From assembly GCF_013122565.1 (NCBI RefSeq), contig NZ_CP053258.1: DNA of 64,000 bases. The stretch is one strand, 5' to 3'. Source of the stretch: Escherichia coli (GTDB lineage: Bacteria > Pseudomonadota > Gammaproteobacteria > Enterobacterales > Enterobacteriaceae). Positions 48,452 through 57,639 of the stretch are shown here, piece after piece. The notes below the pieces were generated by a model that saw only the letters and a list, made by a program, of their open reading frames with translations, had not been told where the DNA came from and searched no databases. Both the position numbers and the translations under genes were made by a program. Each line of letters opens with the position of its first letter. Positions within the stretch are counted from its first letter, which is position 1.

Positions 48452-48694
48452 GATGTAATCCTTGTGCAGACAAATTTCTTGTTACCTAAACGTAACAATA
48501 CCATGACATTTCACCGTTGTCTGCTCTGAAAAGCTCACCTCTTAGCTGGATTTACAATCAACGCATTGATTAGTTAGCTAATGTTGCTACTTCCTTCCCT
48601 GACTATTGATGATCTGAATGAATTGTCGCGGTAAAATAGCCCCGCCAGGGGTTTCCGGCATGACGACAATTATCTGGAGGAGCCTGATAAAACA

Positions 48695-49726
48695 ATGATC
48701 GCTGAACTGTTTACAAATAATGCGCTTAATCTGGTCATTATTTTCGGTAGCTGCGCAGCATTGATTCTGATGAGCTTTTGGTTTCGCCGCGGAAATCGTA
48801 AAAGAAAAGGCTTTTTATTCCATGCGGTGCAATTTTTAATCTACACCATAATTATCAGTGCTGTTGGTAGCATTATTAATTATGTTATAGAAAACTATAA
48901 ACTCAAATTTATCACCCCAGGCGTTATCGATTTTATCTGTACGTCCCTGATTGCGGTTATTCTGACGATTAAGCTATTTTTGCTGATTAATCAGTTTGAA
49001 AAACAGCAGATTAAAAAAGGTCGCGATATCACCAGTGCGCGGATTATGTCGCGCATTATCAAAATCACCATTATTGTGGTGCTTGTTCTGCTTTATGGCG
49101 AACATTTCGGCATGAGCCTTTCTGGCTTGTTGACCTTTGGTGGTATTGGTGGTCTGGCTGTCGGTATGGCCGGTAAAGATATTTTGAGTAACTTCTTTTC
49201 CGGGATCATGCTCTATTTCGACCGTCCTTTTAGTATTGGCGACTGGATCCGTTCACCGGACAGAAATATCGAAGGTACAGTAGCGGAAATTGGCTGGCGA
49301 ATTACCAAGATTACGACTTTTGATAATCGTCCATTGTACGTACCGAACTCGCTGTTTTCGTCGATCAGCGTAGAAAACCCAGGACGAATGACCAACCGGC
49401 GCATTACCACGACCATTGGTTTACGTTATGAGGATGCGGCAAAAGTGGGCGTTATTGTCGAAGCCGTACGTGAGATGCTGAAAAATCACCCGGCCATTGA
49501 CCAGCGACAAACCTTACTGGTTTATTTCAACCAGTTTGCTGACTCCTCATTGAATATTATGGTTTATTGCTTTACCAAAACCACGGTATGGGCTGAATGG
49601 CTTGCTGCACAGCAAGACGTTTATTTGAAGATTATCGATATTGTACAGTCACACGGCGCGGACTTTGCCTTCCCCAGCCAGACGCTGTATATGGATAACA
49701 TTACACCGCCGGACCAGGGTCGCTAA
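48695..49726 (+). CDS. ynaI: MscS-family mechanosensitive channel
   Basis: 343-aa ORF with N-terminal transmembrane helices and an MscS-like beta domain. Confidence 0.85.
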
Positions 49727-49736
49727 ATCAGACATC

Positions 49737-49766
49737 ACTGGCGTTATCCACAAGGGTAACGCCAGT
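49737..49766. terminator. 10-bp-stem hairpin between convergent ynaI and mppA
   Basis: ACTGGCGTTA pairs with TAACGCCAGT, loop of 10 nt; likely a bidirectional terminator. Confidence 0.55.
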
Positions 49767-49776
49767 TCCCATCACA

Positions 49777-51390
49777 TCAATGCTTCACAATATACATAGT
49801 CCGACTGTACGCCACATCTTCCGGGTTATTAATGGGATAACCTTTCAGCCACGGCTTGATTAATCGTCCATTGGTATATTGATAAATTGGTGCAATCGGT
49901 GCTTGCTCCATGAGGATTTTTTCTGCCGCATTGTAATCGGCATTACGCGCTTTAACGGTATTTTCCGTTGATGCCTGGGCCAGTACTTTGTCGTATGCCG
50001 GATTGTTAAAGCGTGAAATATTTCCTGAATGCGTTGACGTTAATAATGTCAGGAAAGTGGAGGGTTCATTATAATCCCCTACCCACGAGGCTCGGATAAC
50101 ATCAAAATTGCCGGTGTTACGGCTATCGATATAGGTTTTCCATTCCTGATTTTGCAATTTAACATCTACGCCAAGGTTCTTTTTCCACATCGATGCTACA
50201 GCAATCGCAATTTTTTGATGGTTTTCTGAAGTGTTATACAAAAGCGTCAGCTTCAGCGGTTTTTGCGGACCATAACCAGCTGCGCTCAACAAAGTTTTTG
50301 CCTGCGCATTCAGTTCTTCCTGACTCATTTGTTCAAACGGCGAAGGCTCCGGCGTAAAACCGGCAGTAACATCTGGTGTAAAATGCCACGCTGGCTTTTC
50401 ACCCGTCCCCAACACTTTTTCGGTCATCAGGCGGCGATCTATCGTCATACTTAATGCCAGACGAACGCGCTGATCTGCCGTCGGCCCTTTTTGCGTGTTA
50501 AACGCATAATAATAGGTCCCGAGCTGCGGCGGCGTATAAACCTGCCCCGGAATATCCTTCAACAGCTTCTGATACATATTTTTCGGGAAGGATTCGGTGA
50601 TATCAATATCCCCCGCGAGATAACGCTTAGTGGCTGCGGATTCCTGATTAATTGGCAGGAAGGTCACTTTTTGCAGCACCGTTTTGGCGTTATCCCAATA
50701 ATGGGTATTCGGTACCACGACCAGTTTTTCATTGACTACGCGCTCTTTAAGAACATAAGCGCCATTACCGATCAGATTTCCGGGTTTCGTCCACTCTTTA
50801 CTGCTTTCTACGTTGGCTTTTTGCACCGGGAAGAAGGCAAAGTTAGCGGTTAAATTCACAAACCACGGCAACGGTTTATCAAGCTGGATTTTCAAAGTAT
50901 GGGCATCAACTGCGGTGACGCCAAGCTGGTCAGGCGCGGCTTTACCATCAATAATCGCCTGTGCGTTGTTGATTCCCGCCAGCGCGGCAAACCATGCAAA
51001 TGGCGACAATGTTTTTGGGTCCACCAGACGTTGCCAGCTGTAGACAAAATCTTGCGCCGTTACCGGTGTGCCATCCGCCCATTTTGCGTTATCGCGCAGG
51101 GTAAAAGTCCAGATACGGTTGTCATTACTTTTCCACTGAGTCGCAACGCCGGGGACAATCTCCCCTTTCTCGTTCTGATTCACCAGTCCTTCAAACAGAT
51201 CGCGAATGACCTGAATCTCTGGCAGGCCCACGGCTTTAGCGGGATCCAGCGACGCAGGCTCATCTTTAATGTGGCGCACCAGCTCCTGCTTCTCTGCCAG
51301 TACTGTGCCGCTCGGAACTTCTGCAGCATACGAAAGAGAAATGCTGCTGACCAACAGCGCACAACACGTGACTGAAACAGAGTGCTTCAT
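49777..51390 (-). CDS. mppA: periplasmic murein tripeptide-binding protein
   Basis: Longest ORF is 544 aa; ATG at 51390 (MKHSVSVT...) preceded by AGAGGGA gives 537 aa; signal peptide; OppA-like solute-binding protein. Confidence 0.9.
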   Translation of the reverse strand: MKHSVSVTCCALLVSSISLSYAAEVPSGTVLAEKQELVRHIKDEPASLDPAKAVGLPEIQVIRDLFEGLVNQNEKGEIVPGVATQWKSNDNRIWTFTLRDNAKWADGTPVTAQDFVYSWQRLVDPKTLSPFAWFAALAGINNAQAIIDGKAAPDQLGVTAVDAHTLKIQLDKPLPWFVNLTANFAFFPVQKANVESSKEWTKPGNLIGNGAYVLKERVVNEKLVVVPNTHYWDNAKTVLQKVTFLPINQESAATKRYLAGDIDITESFPKNMYQKLLKDIPGQVYTPPQLGTYYYAFNTQKGPTADQRVRLALSMTIDRRLMTEKVLGTGEKPAWHFTPDVTAGFTPEPSPFEQMSQEELNAQAKTLLSAAGYGPQKPLKLTLLYNTSENHQKIAIAVASMWKKNLGVDVKLQNQEWKTYIDSRNTGNFDVIRASWVGDYNEPSTFLTLLTSTHSGNISRFNNPAYDKVLAQASTENTVKARNADYNAAEKILMEQAPIAPIYQYTNGRLIKPWLKGYPINNPEDVAYSRTMYIVKH

Positions 51391-51572
51391 AAGTTTCCCT
51401 CTAACCGACATTAAAATTGATGCGTAATTATTTGTTTCGCCTTAAAGAAATGCAAACAACTTCCATCAAAAAAGTGATACAAGATCGATAACATAGCGTT
51501 GAAGAAAAGGATTTGATAATCCGCAAAATTTGCACAACACTGCCTGTAATACTTCCTGAACCAGAGACGATC

Positions 51573-52301
51573 ATGACCGTAACCCGCCCACGCGCCGAAC
51601 GCGGCGCATTTCCGCCCGGAACAGAACATTACGGACGTTCATTATTGGGCGCGCCGTTAATCTGGTTTCCGGCCCCTGCAGCCAGTCGCGAAAGTGGTTT
51701 GATACTGGCTGGCACTCACGGTGATGAAAACTCTTCGGTCGTCACGCTCTCCTGTGCTCTGCGGACTTTGACACCGTCTTTGCGCCGCCATCATGTGGTG
51801 CTGTGTGTGAATCCTGACGGCTGCCAGTTGGGGTTACGGGCCAATGCTAATGGTGTGGATTTAAACAGAAACTTTCCTGCGGCGAACTGGAAGGAAGGTG
51901 AAACGGTTTATCGCTGGAACAGCGCCGCTGAAGAACGTGATGTTGTATTACTGACAGGTGACAAACCTGGCTCCGAACCTGAAACCCAGGCGCTGTGCCA
52001 GCTTATACACCGCATTCAACCTGCCTGGGTGGTCTCATTCCACGATCCACTGGCTTGTATTGAAGATCCCAGACACAGCGAATTAGGCGAATGGCTGGCC
52101 CAGGCGTTTGAATTGCCTCTGGTAACCAGCGTCGGTTATGAAACGCCTGGCTCTTTCGGCAGTTGGTGTGCAGATCTCAACTTGCATTGCATCACCGCAG
52201 AGTTTCCGCCCATCTCCTCCGACGAAGCCAGCGAAAAATATCTCTTTGCGATGGCAAACTTGCTGCGCTGGCATCCTAAAGATGCAATTCGCCCGTCGTG
52301 A
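51573..52301 (+). CDS. mpaA: murein peptide amidase A (zinc carboxypeptidase-like)
   Basis: Longest ORF starts at 51513; ATG at 51573 (MTVTRPRAERG...) gives 242 aa; 3' end overlaps convergent ycjG by 26 nt. Confidence 0.85.
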   Translation: MTVTRPRAERGAFPPGTEHYGRSLLGAPLIWFPAPAASRESGLILAGTHGDENSSVVTLSCALRTLTPSLRRHHVVLCVNPDGCQLGLRANANGVDLNRNFPAANWKEGETVYRWNSAAEERDVVLLTGDKPGSEPETQALCQLIHRIQPAWVVSFHDPLACIEDPRHSELGEWLAQAFELPLVTSVGYETPGSFGSWCADLNLHCITAEFPPISSDEASEKYLFAMANLLRWHPKDAIRPS

Positions 52302-53241
52302 ACTGAAGCGCCGGTTCCACATCTACCGCCAGCCAGGTCGGTCCGTCAAGATCGGCGAAACTGACCTGCGGCACCAGCGGTAAAGCGGCGCTAATGGCAC
52401 GAGAGGTACACAACATGCAGCCCAGCATCAGACGAAAACCTTGTGCACGTGCTTCAGTCGCCAGCGCCAGCGCTTCCGTCAGACCGCCGGTTTTATCGAG
52501 CTTAATGTTAACCATCTCATAGCGCCCTTTCAGCGCCTTCAGATTGCTACGAGTATGACAACTTTCATCAGCACAAATCGGCAACGGATGAATAAAATTC
52601 TCCAGCGCCGCATCGTCCTGCGCAGGAAGCGGTTGTTCAAGCATCGCAACGCCTAAATCCGCCAATAGCTGGCAACGCGCCGCCAACCCTTCTGCACGCC
52701 AGGATTCATTTGCGTCAACGATCAGCGTGGCATCGGGCACAGCTGTGCGAATTGCCACCATCCGCTCACTGATAAGATGGTTATCCAGCTTCACTTTCAG
52801 TAATTTCGCGCCTGCCTGCCAGAGTGTTGATGCACTATTGGCCATCTGATCAGGCGTACCGATGACTACCGTCTGGGCAGTGGTGACTGTCTCGGGAAGC
52901 GTTATGCCGATCAAATCAGCCAGCGTTTGCTGCTGTTTTCGCGCCGCCAGATCCCACAATGCACAATCCAGCGCATTACGTGCTGCGCCGGCAGGGAGAA
53001 TTTTTTGCAACTCCTCCCGTGTCAGCCCTTTCTCTAATTGCGGCACGACGCTTATAATTTGCGCCATTACCGAGGCATCACTTTCTCCATAACGCGGATA
53101 CGGCGTGCATTCACCGGTGCCTTTAATACCCTCTTCTTCCAGTTCAACCACCACCACGCGCGCTTCACTGCGACTTCCCCGGGCAATCACAAACGGGGTA
53201 TGTAAGGGCCAGGCTTCCTCAAATACCTTAACGGTTCTCAT
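52276..53241 (-). CDS. ycjG: L-Ala-D/L-Glu epimerase (enolase superfamily)
   Basis: Longest ORF is 335 aa; ATG at 53241 (MRTVKVFEE...) gives 321 aa. Confidence 0.85.
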   Translation of the reverse strand: MRTVKVFEEAWPLHTPFVIARGSRSEARVVVVELEEEGIKGTGECTPYPRYGESDASVMAQIISVVPQLEKGLTREELQKILPAGAARNALDCALWDLAARKQQQTLADLIGITLPETVTTAQTVVIGTPDQMANSASTLWQAGAKLLKVKLDNHLISERMVAIRTAVPDATLIVDANESWRAEGLAARCQLLADLGVAMLEQPLPAQDDAALENFIHPLPICADESCHTRSNLKALKGRYEMVNIKLDKTGGLTEALALATEARAQGFRLMLGCMLCTSRAISAALPLVPQVSFADLDGPTWLAVDVEPALQFTTGELHL

Positions 53242-53359
53242 CTTTACTCCTTGTTGTCGCGGTGGTCTGCGGATTAAGCGCAAATAGCGTTTGCTGTGTT
53301 ATTGACAGTTAGCATAAACTAGGTGTGACGTTAACTATATGTAAACAGGAAAGATAATC

Positions 53360-53863
53360 ATGTCACAAACCGTTCATTTCCAGGGCAACCCGGTTACAGT
53401 CGCCAACTCCATCCCGCAGACGGGTAGCAAAGCGCAGACTTTTACTCTCGTGGCAAAAGATCTGTCTGACGTCACCCTCGGTCAGTTTGCGGGTAAACGC
53501 AAAGTGCTGAACATTTTCCCGAGTATTGATACCGGTGTTTGCGCCGCATCAGTACGTAAGTTTAACCAACTGGCAACCGAGATCGACAACACCGTTGTGC
53601 TGTGTATCTCTGCCGATCTGCCGTTCGCCCAGTCTCGTTTCTGCGGCGCAGAAGGTCTGAACAACGTTATCACCCTCTCCACTTTCCGTAACGCTGAATT
53701 TCTGCAAGCCTACGGTGTGGCAATTGCTGATGGCCCACTGAAAGGTCTGGCAGCGCGTGCCGTTGTGGTTATTGATGAAAATGACAACGTGATTTTCAGC
53801 CAGCTGGTGGATGAAATCACCACCGAGCCGGATTACGAAGCAGCTCTGGCTGTACTGCGCTAA
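53360..53863 (+). CDS. tpx: thiol peroxidase
   Basis: 167-aa ORF starting [20 protein letters not shown] with peroxidatic Cys motif (SIDTGVC). Confidence 0.95.
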
Positions 53864-53871
53864 ACAACTGT

Positions 53872-53910
53872 GCCGTTCACTGAATCACCACCGGTGAACG
53901 GCAGTTTTTT
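53872..53910 (+). terminator. intrinsic terminator of tpx
   Basis: Stem GCCGTTCAC (53872..53880) / GTGAACGGC (53894..53902), then AG + T6 (53905..53910), 9 nt after the tpx stop. Confidence 0.85.
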
Positions 53911-54017
53911 GATCTACCAGTCCCACTATTTTCCAGAGTTCCTGCCACTATTCCCCCTAACCGTTGTGCATTAAGATTGCTCTTTGCCAATATTGGCCCA
54001 GCGGAGTGATGACTATT

Positions 54018-56060
54018 ATGGATGATAAACAAATTACGGTCTGGCTTAAACACAATTGCTGTTCAACGGACATTCCTGCCATTGCCGAGGCACTAACGAA
54101 CCATGCAGAATGGCTTTTAGAGCTAGCGCCAGATCCTATTGAACAAGGTAGTTCATGTTTACCGCCGACAGCTGCAGCCGGTATTTTTCTTGGCGCAGCG
54201 GCGATGGTTCACTGCGGCGAGGCTAGTGGTGCAGAAACCTGGCTCGAAGCAGCCATTACTGATTACCATTTCTTTAATCCAAATGGATATAGTTCATGGA
54301 GAGGCAGTACGCCTGTTTTTACAGCATTATCGCGTTACCCGGCATTAAGAATGGTGTTATTTAACGCCGCTTGCGCAATGGAAGACTGGAATAAAGCATC
54401 CGCTGTTCTTGAATCGCTTTTCCATGCCAGCGATGTCCCGGAAGATAACCCTGTCGCCCCAAATTTTACCCCTTATGCGCTGAAAGCGTTTATCGCGGAT
54501 TACCACCCGTTAGGACCAGCTCATTATGATGAAACCTGGTTGCTGGCAAAACAAGCGTGGTTAATTAATGCGAGCGTTCTGGATGAGCGAACCTGCAATA
54601 CCTGGAAGCAATATACCCGCCACTTGCGCCATTTGATCCACAATGCACAGTTTGCCGATGCGCTCTCTTTTGTACGCAGTAAAAAAGAACCGTTAAATCA
54701 TATCCATACCTACTCAGACTTTTATCTGTATGCGATTGGTTTATTTTCTTATACTGGTCAGCTAAATGAAGCGCTGACCTGGATAAAACAGTTAATCCAC
54801 AACAATGATGGTCATTTCTGTGATCTTTTCGTTTCAACTGGCAAAGAGCGCCGAATAAAGCCTGAACTTAGTACCTTGCTGAATAATCTCTTGCACAGCG
54901 CAGAGTTTCAGGCGTTGCAGGATAAATATCTCACCGTCGGACATGATGTTGTGCATTCTGGTCCCTTCATGTCAGTTTATGAAAAGGTTCTTGGCGGAAA
55001 GTCCCGAAAGCGCTGCGCGATTAGTCGAAAATTAATCTCGCCCGGCGAAGCGGTTTATGAATATCGTCAGCTGGATAGTGTGGCATATATTGCAGCGAAA
55101 GCGGCCTTTCAGGCATCTGCGCTAAATAATATCGCCCTCCGGCATACAAATGATAGTTATCAGTGGCAGGATTTTGCCGCCCAATGGCCTCGTCGGGGTG
55201 CGCTTTCTCACCCGGATATTGCCCGTTATATGTTTGAGCGCCAGAAAGGGAAATGTTTTGATGCCGCAGAGTTTATTCAACTGATTGCCGAACCGTTTGT
55301 CTTTCCGATGCGTTTCAGATGGGTTGCCGGGTTGTCCTTTGAATTACATCAGTACCCGGATGCCTATTTCGTAAATGACAATATGGCGGGTGAATTTGTT
55401 AATCTCTGCTGGATGGCTATAAAATGCGGACATGCTGGCGACATTTTTAAACAACTGGCGAAGGAGTCGCATGACGTTGCCGACCCTATTTACGCTATGC
55501 TCGCCACGTTTGACCGCGCTGATTGCCGCAGCGCTGCCGCCGCGCACTTTGGACGACCGGAGCTTGCGGAAATAATGGCGCTGGCTTTCAGTTCGAGGTT
55601 ATCGCTCGACAGCGTCCTTACCATCGCTGAGTTTGGTAAAAATCAGCCGCGCTTTTCACATGCGTTGGCAACGGCCCTCCTGCGTTACAACCTGCACATC
55701 TACTCAAACTATATGCCGCAGGTTAACTGGTTCCTTCAGGGGCTGGAACACTATGCTTTGGCAAAAGGCGGTCAACTTTTAAATTTCTTTGTGCATATTC
55801 CAGAACAAATTCCCGTTCTGGCGACCATGCTGGAACATGGCGTATTAGTGCGTGGGATCGGTGAAGGTGCCTATGATGGTTATGATAATTCAGCAAATTC
55901 ATTTCATCATGCCGCCGTGATGCACTGCCTCACGCACGCGCCGGAAAAAGTTCGCTACTGGATGGAAACACCCTGGATTCAGAACTATTTAGTGAATGCG
56001 CCGCTGCGTCAAACGGCGCGCCATGTGGAAGCCTGGCATAAAAAGTTTGGCATCAAATGA
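54018..56060 (+). CDS. uncharacterized ~680-aa protein with no recognisable motif, encoded on an insertion between tpx and tyrR
   Basis: Uninterrupted ORF (longest form from TTG 53964, 698 codons); ATG at 54018 sits about 7 nt after a GGAGTGAT Shine-Dalgarno-like sequence (alternative ATG at 54009). No Walker A, HTH, signal peptide or nuclease motif seen; rare codons CGA and ATA are used; bounded by the tpx terminator and an inverted repeat at the tyrR 3' end. Confidence 0.7.
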   Translation: MDDKQITVWLKHNCCSTDIPAIAEALTNHAEWLLELAPDPIEQGSSCLPPTAAAGIFLGAAAMVHCGEASGAETWLEAAITDYHFFNPNGYSSWRGSTPVFTALSRYPALRMVLFNAACAMEDWNKASAVLESLFHASDVPEDNPVAPNFTPYALKAFIADYHPLGPAHYDETWLLAKQAWLINASVLDERTCNTWKQYTRHLRHLIHNAQFADALSFVRSKKEPLNHIHTYSDFYLYAIGLFSYTGQLNEALTWIKQLIHNNDGHFCDLFVSTGKERRIKPELSTLLNNLLHSAEFQALQDKYLTVGHDVVHSGPFMSVYEKVLGGKSRKRCAISRKLISPGEAVYEYRQLDSVAYIAAKAAFQASALNNIALRHTNDSYQWQDFAAQWPRRGALSHPDIARYMFERQKGKCFDAAEFIQLIAEPFVFPMRFRWVAGLSFELHQYPDAYFVNDNMAGEFVNLCWMAIKCGHAGDIFKQLAKESHDVADPIYAMLATFDRADCRSAAAAHFGRPELAEIMALAFSSRLSLDSVLTIAEFGKNQPRFSHALATALLRYNLHIYSNYMPQVNWFLQGLEHYALAKGGQLLNFFVHIPEQIPVLATMLEHGVLVRGIGEGAYDGYDNSANSFHHAAVMHCLTHAPEKVRYWMETPWIQNYLVNAPLRQTARHVEAWHKKFGIK

Positions 56061-56068
56061 ACGTTGCC

Positions 56069-56089
56069 GCTGCGCCTGAACGGCGCAGC
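56069..56089. terminator. inverted repeat between the inserted ORF and the tyrR 3' end
   Basis: 8-bp stem GCTGCGCC / GGCGCAGC with loop TGAAC, between the ORF stop (56060) and the tyrR stop (56098); no U-run, so terminator function is uncertain. Confidence 0.4.
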
Positions 56090-56097
56090 CAGCACAA

Positions 56098-57639
56098 TCA
56101 CTCTTCGCTTTTCTTCTGGTTTAAGCCATATTCCCGCAACTTATTGGCAATCGCGGTATGTGAAACACCGAGACGTTTTGCCAGTTTGCGCGTGCTGGGA
56201 TAATTGCGATAAAGCTGAGTTAATACCGAGCGTTCAAAACGGCTGGTAATTTCGTCCAGCGAACCTTCCATCGCATCTTCGCCCACGGCTACCGTTGCGG
56301 CGTCATAATCAGGCAACAAAATATCCTGAGGACGCAGCTCATAACCGTCCAGTTGTGTCAGTGCGCGATAGATAGCGTTCTTTAACTGCCGCACATTTCC
56401 CGGCCACGCATAACGCGTAAGTACAGTATTCAGGTCAGCGGCCAGTTTCGGACGCGGCACGCCCTGCTCGTCGGCAAAGCGGGCGACGAACAGCTCAGTT
56501 AACGGCATGATGTCCTGCGGACAGTCACGTAGCGGTGGCAGATTGAGCGTCAACACGTTCAGACGATAATAGAGATCTTCACGGAACATGCCTTTTTGCA
56601 CCAGTTCGACCAGATTTTTCTGCGTAGCGCAAATCACCCGCACATCGACATGCACCTCATGGTCTTCGCCAACCCGACGGAAAGTGCCATCATTAAGGAA
56701 ACGCAGTAATTTCGCCTGCATCCGTGGTGACATTTCCCCTATTTCATCCAACAGCACCGAACCACCGTTCGCCTGCTCAAAGAATCCTTTCTTCCCTTCC
56801 GGAGCATGACCAAACAGTTCACTCTCGACCGCATCTTCCGGTATAGACGCACAGTTCAGCGCCAGGTAAGGTTTGCCCGCTCTGGGGCTTGCCTGATGGC
56901 AGGCGTAGGCAAAGAGATCTTTACCTGTACCTGTGTCACCCGTAATCAGCAGCGGCGCGCTTAGCATCGCCAGTTTCTGCGCCTGTTCGACAACGTGCTT
57001 CATTTTCGGGCTGACGGCGACAATTTGACTGAAGGCGCTGACGTCCTGGGCGGCGACATTTTGCAACTGGCGGCCCATACGAATCGTTGATCGCAACATC
57101 ACCACCGCACCGGTCAGGACGTGTTGAGCATTTTCATCCTGAAGATAAACAGGCGTAATCTCCATCAGGAAATTCTGCCCATTAATAACGACATGCTCGT
57201 TATGCGAATCTTGCGGTTCGCTTTCCAGCCAACGTAAAAAATTAAAGCCGTTAATCAATTGTGCGGCGGTATGGTTGCGCAGGCGATCCAATTTTTGCCC
57301 AAAAAGCTGACAGCTCGCCGGGTTCGCCATATCCACTTTGCTTTTCATATCGACAGAGAGCACAGGTTCGGGCAACGCCTCCAGTAACGCGCTCAACGCC
57401 AGATGCTCACGTTCGGAAGGCATCCACGGGACAGTACGCACATCGGTAACACCTGCAATACGGCGTATTTCGGCCATCAGACTGCTGAAACTCTCAAACT
57501 CCAGTTCAGCAAAATTGAGGTAGATTCGCCCAATGGGATCAATCTCAATACCGCGTAAATCAATGCCTCTTAGCACGAGTAGATCGAGTAATTCGCGGGT
57601 CAGACCGAGTCGGTCTTCACAAAAGACTTCCAGACGCAT
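56098..57639 (-). CDS. tyrR: transcriptional regulator TyrR (sigma-54 activator family)
   Basis: Longest ORF starts at TTG 57666; ATG at 57639 (MRLEVFCEDRLGLTREL...) gives 513 aa; AAA+ motif GDTGTGKD and C-terminal HTH. Confidence 0.95.
   Translation of the reverse strand: MRLEVFCEDRLGLTRELLDLLVLRGIDLRGIEIDPIGRIYLNFAELEFESFSSLMAEIRRIAGVTDVRTVPWMPSEREHLALSALLEALPEPVLSVDMKSKVDMANPASCQLFGQKLDRLRNHTAAQLINGFNFLRWLESEPQDSHNEHVVINGQNFLMEITPVYLQDENAQHVLTGAVVMLRSTIRMGRQLQNVAAQDVSAFSQIVAVSPKMKHVVEQAQKLAMLSAPLLITGDTGTGKDLFAYACHQASPRAGKPYLALNCASIPEDAVESELFGHAPEGKKGFFEQANGGSVLLDEIGEMSPRMQAKLLRFLNDGTFRRVGEDHEVHVDVRVICATQKNLVELVQKGMFREDLYYRLNVLTLNLPPLRDCPQDIMPLTELFVARFADEQGVPRPKLAADLNTVLTRYAWPGNVRQLKNAIYRALTQLDGYELRPQDILLPDYDAATVAVGEDAMEGSLDEITSRFERSVLTQLYRNYPSTRKLAKRLGVSHTAIANKLREYGLNQKKSEE

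Follow-up and report, generated by a model that had tools for sequence, protein, structure and literature searches.

Precise deletions between short direct repeats occur by RecA-independent slippage or by short-homology recombination, and deletions in lacI as well as the precise excision of transposons represent the classic cases. The locus analyzed here resembles such deletions, and it corresponds to the region between mpaA and mppA of Escherichia coli K-12, in which PgrR (YcjZ) acts as repressor of the ycjY-ymjDC-mpaA operon and has been described as a switch for the recycling of peptidoglycan peptides. According to the RefSeq annotation of strain MG1655 (NC_000913.3), the genes are arranged in the order mpaA-ymjC-ymjD-ycjY-pgrR-mppA, and 2,628 bp separate the start codons of mpaA and mppA. 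The PgrR regulon of K-12 comprises ycjY-ymjDC-mpaA, ycjG, and ycjXF-tyrR (PMC5934670).

A shorter arrangement is present in the DNA investigated here, a stretch of 64,000 nucleotides from contig NZ_CP053258.1 of E. coli (assembly GCF_013122565.1), which is called the window in the following. The genes pgrR and ycjY and the small open reading frames ymjC and ymjD, hereafter the cassette, are missing between mppA and mpaA. We compared the locus with 5,426 complete E. coli genomes (RefSeq) and with one genome per species of the family Enterobacteriaceae. The latter scan found 80 loci encoding MpaA, of which 76 were informative as to the distance between mppA and mpaA; the scan did not return the species representative of E. 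coli. The different forms of the cassette were collected from contigs found via exact look-ups of the MppA and MpaA proteins.

The mppA-mpaA locus of the window

The preliminary description of the sequence had stated that mppA and mpaA are directly divergent with about 180 bp between them, which was borne out with exact coordinates (Table 1). It had also placed ycjY, pgrR, ymjC, and ymjD between mpaA and mppA in K-12, in agreement with the RefSeq annotation, and regarded the ycjY-pgrR segment as missing here. This view is correct as well, because the blastn comparison with K-12 splits at the spacer and no homologue of the cassette exists in the 64-kb window. Equal adjacency of the two genes in K-12, which had been named as the observation that would contradict this view, did not arise, because the distance is 2,628 bp in K-12 and 182 bp here. 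The lack of the cassette in the window is a structural fact and not a statistical signal.

Table 1. Positions of genes and sequence features at the mppA-mpaA locus, counted from the first nucleotide of the window.
Feature	Position	Strand	Basis
mppA, murein tripeptide ABC transporter periplasmic binding protein	49777-51390	-	537 aa plus stop; translation, RefSeq annotation of homologous loci
Divergent mppA/mpaA spacer, without cassette, ancestral-type	51391-51572		182 bp between start codons
Promoter-like site for mppA: -35 TTTGCA (51456-51451), 18-nt spacer, -10 AATAAT (51432-51427)	51427-51456	-	Consensus scan, 9/12
30-bp segment AAATGCAAACAACTTCCATCAAAAAAGTGA, single-copy, presumed deletion junction	51448-51477		blastn overlap with K-12, three-way alignment
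AT dinucleotide (CCAT variant), diagnostic of the mppA-side repeat copy of the cassette	51465-51466		Repeat comparison
Poorly conserved spacer centre; insertions in E. coli, L069, and L093 fall here	51478-51506		Conservation profile, border sequences
Candidate mpaA promoter: -35-like TTGATA (51513-51518), 17-nt spacer, -10-like AACACT (51536-51541)	51513-51541	+	Read from the sequence
mpaA, murein tripeptide amidase A	51573-52301	+	242 aa plus stop; translation, exact-protein look-up

The mppA start codon occupies positions 51390-51388 on the minus strand and the translated product begins with MKHSVSV, while the ATG of mpaA at 51573-51575 on the plus strand opens a product beginning with MTVTRPRAERG. 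Both proteins are ordinary members of the species: exact-protein look-ups found identical copies of MppA encoded on very many E. coli contigs, and MpaA is the same protein as in K-12-type strains. The flanking genes mppA, mpaA, ycjG, and tpx show the same order and orientation as around the K-12 locus (mpaA-ymjC-ymjD-ycjY/pgrR-mppA, b1326-b1329), and the flanks share 98.3-98.6% DNA identity with K-12. The identity to Escherichia sp. MOD1-EC7003 is 94.5%.

The blastn comparison with K-12 returned two collinear matches, one on the mppA side (48617-51477) and one on the mpaA side (51448-53857). The matches overlap by 30 bp, and this sequence occurs twice in K-12, once at each border of the additional segment. 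Compared with K-12, the window hence lacks a 2,416-bp segment together with one copy of the 30-bp repeat. A second copy of the sequence at 51448-51477 was searched for in the window and not found. Moreover, neither DNA nor protein similarity to the pgrR-ycjY cassette was detected elsewhere within the 64-kb window, which encodes none of the proteins PgrR, YcjY, YmjC, and YmjD; the only hit is a generic LysR paralogue that is 26% identical over the N-terminal 135 residues.

Predicted promoters in the divergent spacer

The promoter-like site upstream of mppA was the only match of the consensus scan in the spacer, and both of its hexamers fall into blocks conserved at 90% or more in a profile over 70 species loci. 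A second, candidate promoter in front of mpaA has 8 of 12 consensus matches, which is under the scan threshold; its position matches that of GGATTTGAT and TTTGCACAACACTG, the two blocks with the highest conservation on the mpaA side. In the profile, two conserved promoter-like modules thus flank a variable centre, and the point at which the cassette is inserted in other strains corresponds to position 51477/51478 of the window, i.e. to the edge of this centre. No matches to Rfam were obtained in the spacer. We infer that the spacer represents the ancestral back-to-back promoter region of mppA and mpaA. The predicted -35 element of mppA lies inside the 30-bp segment that is duplicated in cassette-bearing strains; therefore, the proximal upstream sequences of both genes would have survived the insertion.

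The short layout in other Enterobacteriaceae

Directly divergent mppA and mpaA genes, separated by 138-233 bp, were found in 71 of the 76 informative species loci. These loci span Citrobacter, Enterobacter, Lelliottia, Leclercia, Kluyvera, Kosakonia, Pluralibacter, Trabulsiella, and Yokenella, and they also include E. albertii, E. whittamii, and three other Escherichia species distinct from E. coli, Escherichia sp. MOD1-EC7003 being among the Escherichia. The 182-bp spacer of the window falls into the size range of these species and shares conserved blocks with them, including the predicted -35 and -10 elements of mppA and the block TTTGCACAACACTG near mpaA. In each of the 71 loci the 30-bp sequence occurs once, within the conserved spacer. 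The wide distribution of the divergent arrangement with a single 30-bp copy indicates that the short form is ancestral and that the additional segment of E. coli represents an insertion, upon which 30 bp of the target were duplicated. The window differs from its outgroup in a small detail of this sequence, because it carries the E. coli-specific CCAT where four of the five sampled outgroup Escherichia have CCGG.

PgrR is missing from 75 of the 76 loci from other species, the exception being Escherichia sp. E1V33. The latter strain carries a decayed cassette of the K-12 type (locus L018, 7374-10000) that is 96-99% identical to K-12, while the flanks show only 85-91% identity. That the cassette is far closer to K-12 than its flanks indicates a transfer between species, with E. 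coli as donor.

The cassette and its forms in E. coli

The fullest form of the cassette spans approximately 4.0 kb and contains pgrR, ycjY, a gene for a second hydrolase, and a gene for an NmrA-like oxidoreductase. In the full-form locus L014, which has a gap of 4,191 bp between mppA and mpaA, the second alpha/beta hydrolase has 310 aa and is 42% identical to YcjY, whereas the NAD(P)-binding NmrA-like protein has 212 aa. Shorter forms lack part of this content. The second hydrolase gene is broken in some of them, for example by ISEc20 in O145:H28 (O145 RM12275-C1, L102), and it is deleted in a form of 3,293 bp. The K-12 form has lost the second hydrolase and, in addition, the 3' part of the oxidoreductase gene along with the spacer downstream of it. 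Hence, ymjD and ymjC of K-12 are the deletion remnants of these two lost genes. The K-12-specific deletion that cut the NmrA-like gene and created ymjC ends exactly at the left edge of the mpaA-side repeat (L014 7192-7869 compared with the K-12 locus L001), hence the last 44 bp of the ymjC reading frame (L001 7681-7724) are shared with the cassette-free spacer; they consist of the 30-bp repeat copy and the adjoining 14 bp.

The G+C content of the cassette is 44.6% compared with 49.6% in the window. In E. coli O145 RM12275-C1 (L102 1646-1720), the PGAP annotation shows a 75-bp internal fragment of a queH (epoxyqueuosine reductase) pseudogene at the left end of the cassette, in the spacer between pgrR and mppA, which may be a trace of the original neighbourhood of the cassette. 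Both the low G+C content and the queH fragment fit a foreign origin.

It has to be considered whether the cassette is a mobile element, i.e. a transposon or an integrative element, that excised itself by means of its own recombinase, with the 30-bp repeats as attL and attR. Direct repeats, namely the 30-bp duplication of the native spacer, are indeed found exactly at the borders, the cassette has moved into another Escherichia species (E1V33), and other inserts occupy the same spacer in Salmonella arizonae/diarizonae and at L069. However, the only Pfam domains encoded by the cassette are LysR, alpha/beta hydrolase (twice), and NAD(P)-binding, i.e. no transposase or site-specific recombinase such as an integrase was found among the four cassette genes, and the cassette ends in L014 show no terminal inverted repeats. 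In E1V33, the E. coli-like tract reaches at least 27 bp past the right repeat, which fits an ordinary homologous exchange better than site-specific integration. We therefore regard self-excision as improbable. A Campbell-type integration at the 30-bp site was likewise considered for E1V33 and found to be unsupported, because the E. coli-like sites run past the right repeat.

Frequency of the short form among complete E. coli genomes

Among the 5,426 complete E. coli genomes, 5,219 (about 96%) contain pgrR-ycjY at a coverage of at least 80%, while 183 show no match to pgrR-ycjY anywhere. The oxidoreductase gene is intact in 2,899 and the second hydrolase in 1,272 genomes. The 182-bp short form occurs in 172-173 genomes (3.2%). 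The close agreement between this number and the 183 genomes without any pgrR-ycjY indicates that the cassette was lost from, or never present in, such strains rather than moved to another place. The feature of the window is an ordinary strain-to-strain presence/absence polymorphism of an accessory cassette and opens no new question.

These counts also bear on the possibility that the short junction is an assembly artefact, in which the 30-bp repeats were collapsed and the cassette was dropped. The collapse of repeats can in principle remove the sequence between them. Here, however, sequencing reads are far longer than the repeat of only 30 bp, 172-173 complete genomes have independently yielded this junction, which is also the usual state in other genera, and no cassette sequence was left elsewhere in the window. 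An artefact is therefore implausible, and we consider its probability to be negligible.

The short forms are not uniform. Like the window, the six short-form E. coli sampled have a gap of 182 bp; three of them have CCAT at the junction (PT62, SCU-172, and CP131) and three CCGG or CCGA (2014C-3075, E200086, and IAI39). Most of the 172 short forms belong to an IAI39/CE10/ST648 type of phylogroup F. They share the 182-bp gap and the lack of the cassette with the window, but differ from it by the junction CCGA and other substitutions as well as by 47 and 51 sites in the flanks. The different junctions and flanks indicate that the IAI39-type and the window short forms are independent alleles. The highest identity to any of the 5,426 complete genomes amounts to 97.5% for a 10-kb and 98.7% for a 24-kb query, i.e. 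neither a close relative of the window strain nor a direct progenitor bearing the cassette is present in this set. Exact look-ups of two larger proteins of the window, the 683-aa product of the insert between tpx and tyrR and the 1,174-aa NifJ/YdbK, gave no record.

The 30-bp repeat and the origin of the short form

Direct repeats, identical at 27-30 of 30 positions, border the cassette in 15 of 15 long-form E. coli loci and also in O145; they are perfect (30/30) in O145:H28 strains and agree at 28 of 30 positions in K-12. The 30-bp segment corresponds to the repeat family D2/D5 in the full-form locus L014. In K-12, the mppA-side copy is AAATGCAAACAACTTCCATCAAAAAAGTGA and the mpaA-side copy AAATGCAAACAACTTCCGGCAAAAAAGTGA. 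The repeat is regarded as real, because a match of at least 27 out of 30 positions at both borders of a 4-kb segment would be expected by chance with a probability estimated at about 1e-9. The junction of the window contains exactly one copy of the repeat and no other scar, and the flanks are collinear on both sides.

The two repeat copies can be told apart by one dinucleotide. In the long forms of E. coli, the mppA-side copy always reads CCAT and the mpaA-side copy usually CCGG. Among the five outgroup Escherichia sampled, four have CCGG (MOD1-EC7003, E69, E. albertii, and E. whittamii), one has CCGT (SCPM-O-B-8794), and none has CCAT. The window combines CCAT, the mppA-side variant, with the mpaA-side flank, which is the product expected from a deletion between the repeats. 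The same combination of CCAT and right-flank junction was found in 107 genomes. Hence, the short form of the window is probably secondary, i.e. it goes back to a precise deletion between the 30-bp repeats in a lineage that once carried the cassette. We assign a probability of roughly 0.7 to this reading.

The competing explanation is that the window has kept an ancestral site that was never occupied, either in an early-branching lineage or as an old empty allele, in which case CCAT would have been the state of the empty site at the time of insertion. The layout as such is the same as in the 71 loci of other species, none of the complete E. coli genomes is a close relative of the window lineage, and long forms with CCAT in both copies exist (L013; common in O145:H28 and porcine ETEC strains), which could be the primary product of such an insertion. 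Furthermore, CCGG was not found in the mppA-side copy of any long form among the complete E. coli genomes, and the CCGG/CCGG long form that is predicted as primary product if the target was CCGG was likewise not found. On the other hand, the junction of the window is not in the state seen in the sampled outgroup, where CCGG prevails and CCAT does not occur. Most long forms have kept CCGG in the mpaA-side copy, which, with CCAT at the empty site, would call for the exact reversion of both bases or for a conversion tract that ends within 17 bp.

The flanking haplotypes tend to speak against an empty site as well. In the 300 bp to the left of the junction the window is identical to L013, a CCAT/CCAT long form, and in the 300 bp to the right it differs at 2 positions; the corresponding differences to E200086, a basal short form with CCGG, number 9 and 12. 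A neighbour-joining tree computed from some 5.1 kb of flanking sequence, which reflects only the local sequence of a recombining species, places the window among the cassette-bearing lineages and not in a basal position, while E200086 is basal. The other sampled short forms with CCAT (CP131, PT62, and SCU-172) are all nested in long-form clades. The clearest case is CP131, which differs from K-12 at 0 of 2,753 positions in the left and at 3 of 2,380 positions in the right flank. Its junction is a chimera of CCAT and the K-12 right flank, in which the crossover falls within the final 11 bp of the repeat. Given the near-identity to K-12, the cassette was deleted here precisely and recently, in a background like that of K-12. 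Considering both sides, a never-occupied site is the distinctly less likely explanation for the window. The main weakness of the argument is that its polarity is given by one dinucleotide and short flanking haplotypes in a recombining species. About equally parsimonious, with a similar count of events, is an alternative course in which CCAT was present at the empty target, the insertion generated CCAT/CCAT, and CCGG arose in the mpaA-side copy by a later conversion.

Under the preferred reading of a secondary deletion, the following course of events is proposed. An ancestor of most E. coli would have gained the cassette (about 4.0 kb) within the central part of the spacer, together with the 30-bp target duplication. 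The cassette would then have decayed stepwise, one outcome being the K-12 form, in which the second hydrolase is gone and little of the oxidoreductase gene is left. In the lineage of the window, the whole cassette would have been removed by recombination or replication slippage between the 30-bp direct repeats, leaving one repeat copy and regaining exactly the ancestral layout. This deletion may have happened in the window lineage itself, or elsewhere with a later import of the allele. As mechanism we infer slippage or short-homology recombination between the 30-bp direct repeats. The event would thereby resemble the deletions in lacI and the precise excision of transposons: a repeat-bounded segment is missing, a single copy is left, the junction is chimeric, most clearly in CP131, and the identical junction recurs in unrelated E. 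coli backgrounds. It differs from these cases in that the repeats consist of duplicated native promoter DNA and not of transposon ends, and the deletion is deduced from sequence. The locus could also serve as a clean natural example of an acquired cassette that decays stepwise and is then removed precisely via its own target duplication.

Regulatory implications

Upstream of mpaA, both pgrR and the ycjY promoter are missing from the window. The strain would hence lack the repressor PgrR as well as read-through into mpaA driven from ycjY, and transcription of both mpaA and mppA would start at the conserved promoters of the spacer, without PgrR control, as is presumably the case in other Enterobacteriaceae. 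This regulatory consequence of the cassette loss is drawn from predicted promoters. The lack of PgrR in about 3% of the complete E. coli genomes and at 75 of 76 loci of other species suggests that control by PgrR was laid over mpaA and ycjG in one lineage only, on top of an older, conserved layout with divergent promoters. PgrR of K-12 is encoded on an E. coli-specific accessory cassette, which matters for genome annotation and for views on regulation that are based on K-12.

Other insertions in the same spacer and nearby

Some other genomes carry different DNA between mppA and mpaA. In Salmonella enterica subsp. arizonae CCUG 6322T (L035 7449-9677) and subsp. diarizonae (L038), a canonical cdtABC operon was found in the spacer. 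The three proteins CdtA (270 aa), CdtB (275 aa), and CdtC (191 aa) account for two CDtoxinA domains and one Exo_endo_phos domain in Pfam, and the CdtB is nearer to PDB entry 2f1n (E = 6e-104) than to the CdtB of typhoid toxin (4k6l, 1e-73). For subsp. arizonae, only orthologues of the typhoid-toxin-type cdtB/pltA/pltB have been mentioned in a review (PMC4885037). In 'Citrobacter sp. 18056' (L069 1282-9882), the spacer contains an open reading frame of 2,866 aa with GH94 and glucoamylase domains, which resembles a cyclic-glucan synthase, and in Kluyvera genomosp. 1 (L093) it is about 130 bp longer. The borders of the latter two inserts lie in the unconserved spacer centre, which suggests a spot that tolerates insertions. 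One might speculate further that the 30-bp segment is a reusable, recombinase-independent attachment point, at which the cassette was lost and regained, also across species, and that the spacer centre serves as a family-wide landing pad for accessory operons such as cdtABC or the GH94 gene; at present we regard this extension as doubtful.

A second difference in gene content lies close to the locus, between tpx and tyrR. The insert at 53858-56099 of the window contains an open reading frame of 698 aa (53964-56060) without a match in Pfam, and 30 of the 5,426 complete E. coli genomes cover at least 80% of a 10-kb query that includes it. Both cassette-bearing and cassette-free strains are found among these 30 genomes, which indicates that the tpx-tyrR and the mppA-mpaA indels are independent of each other.
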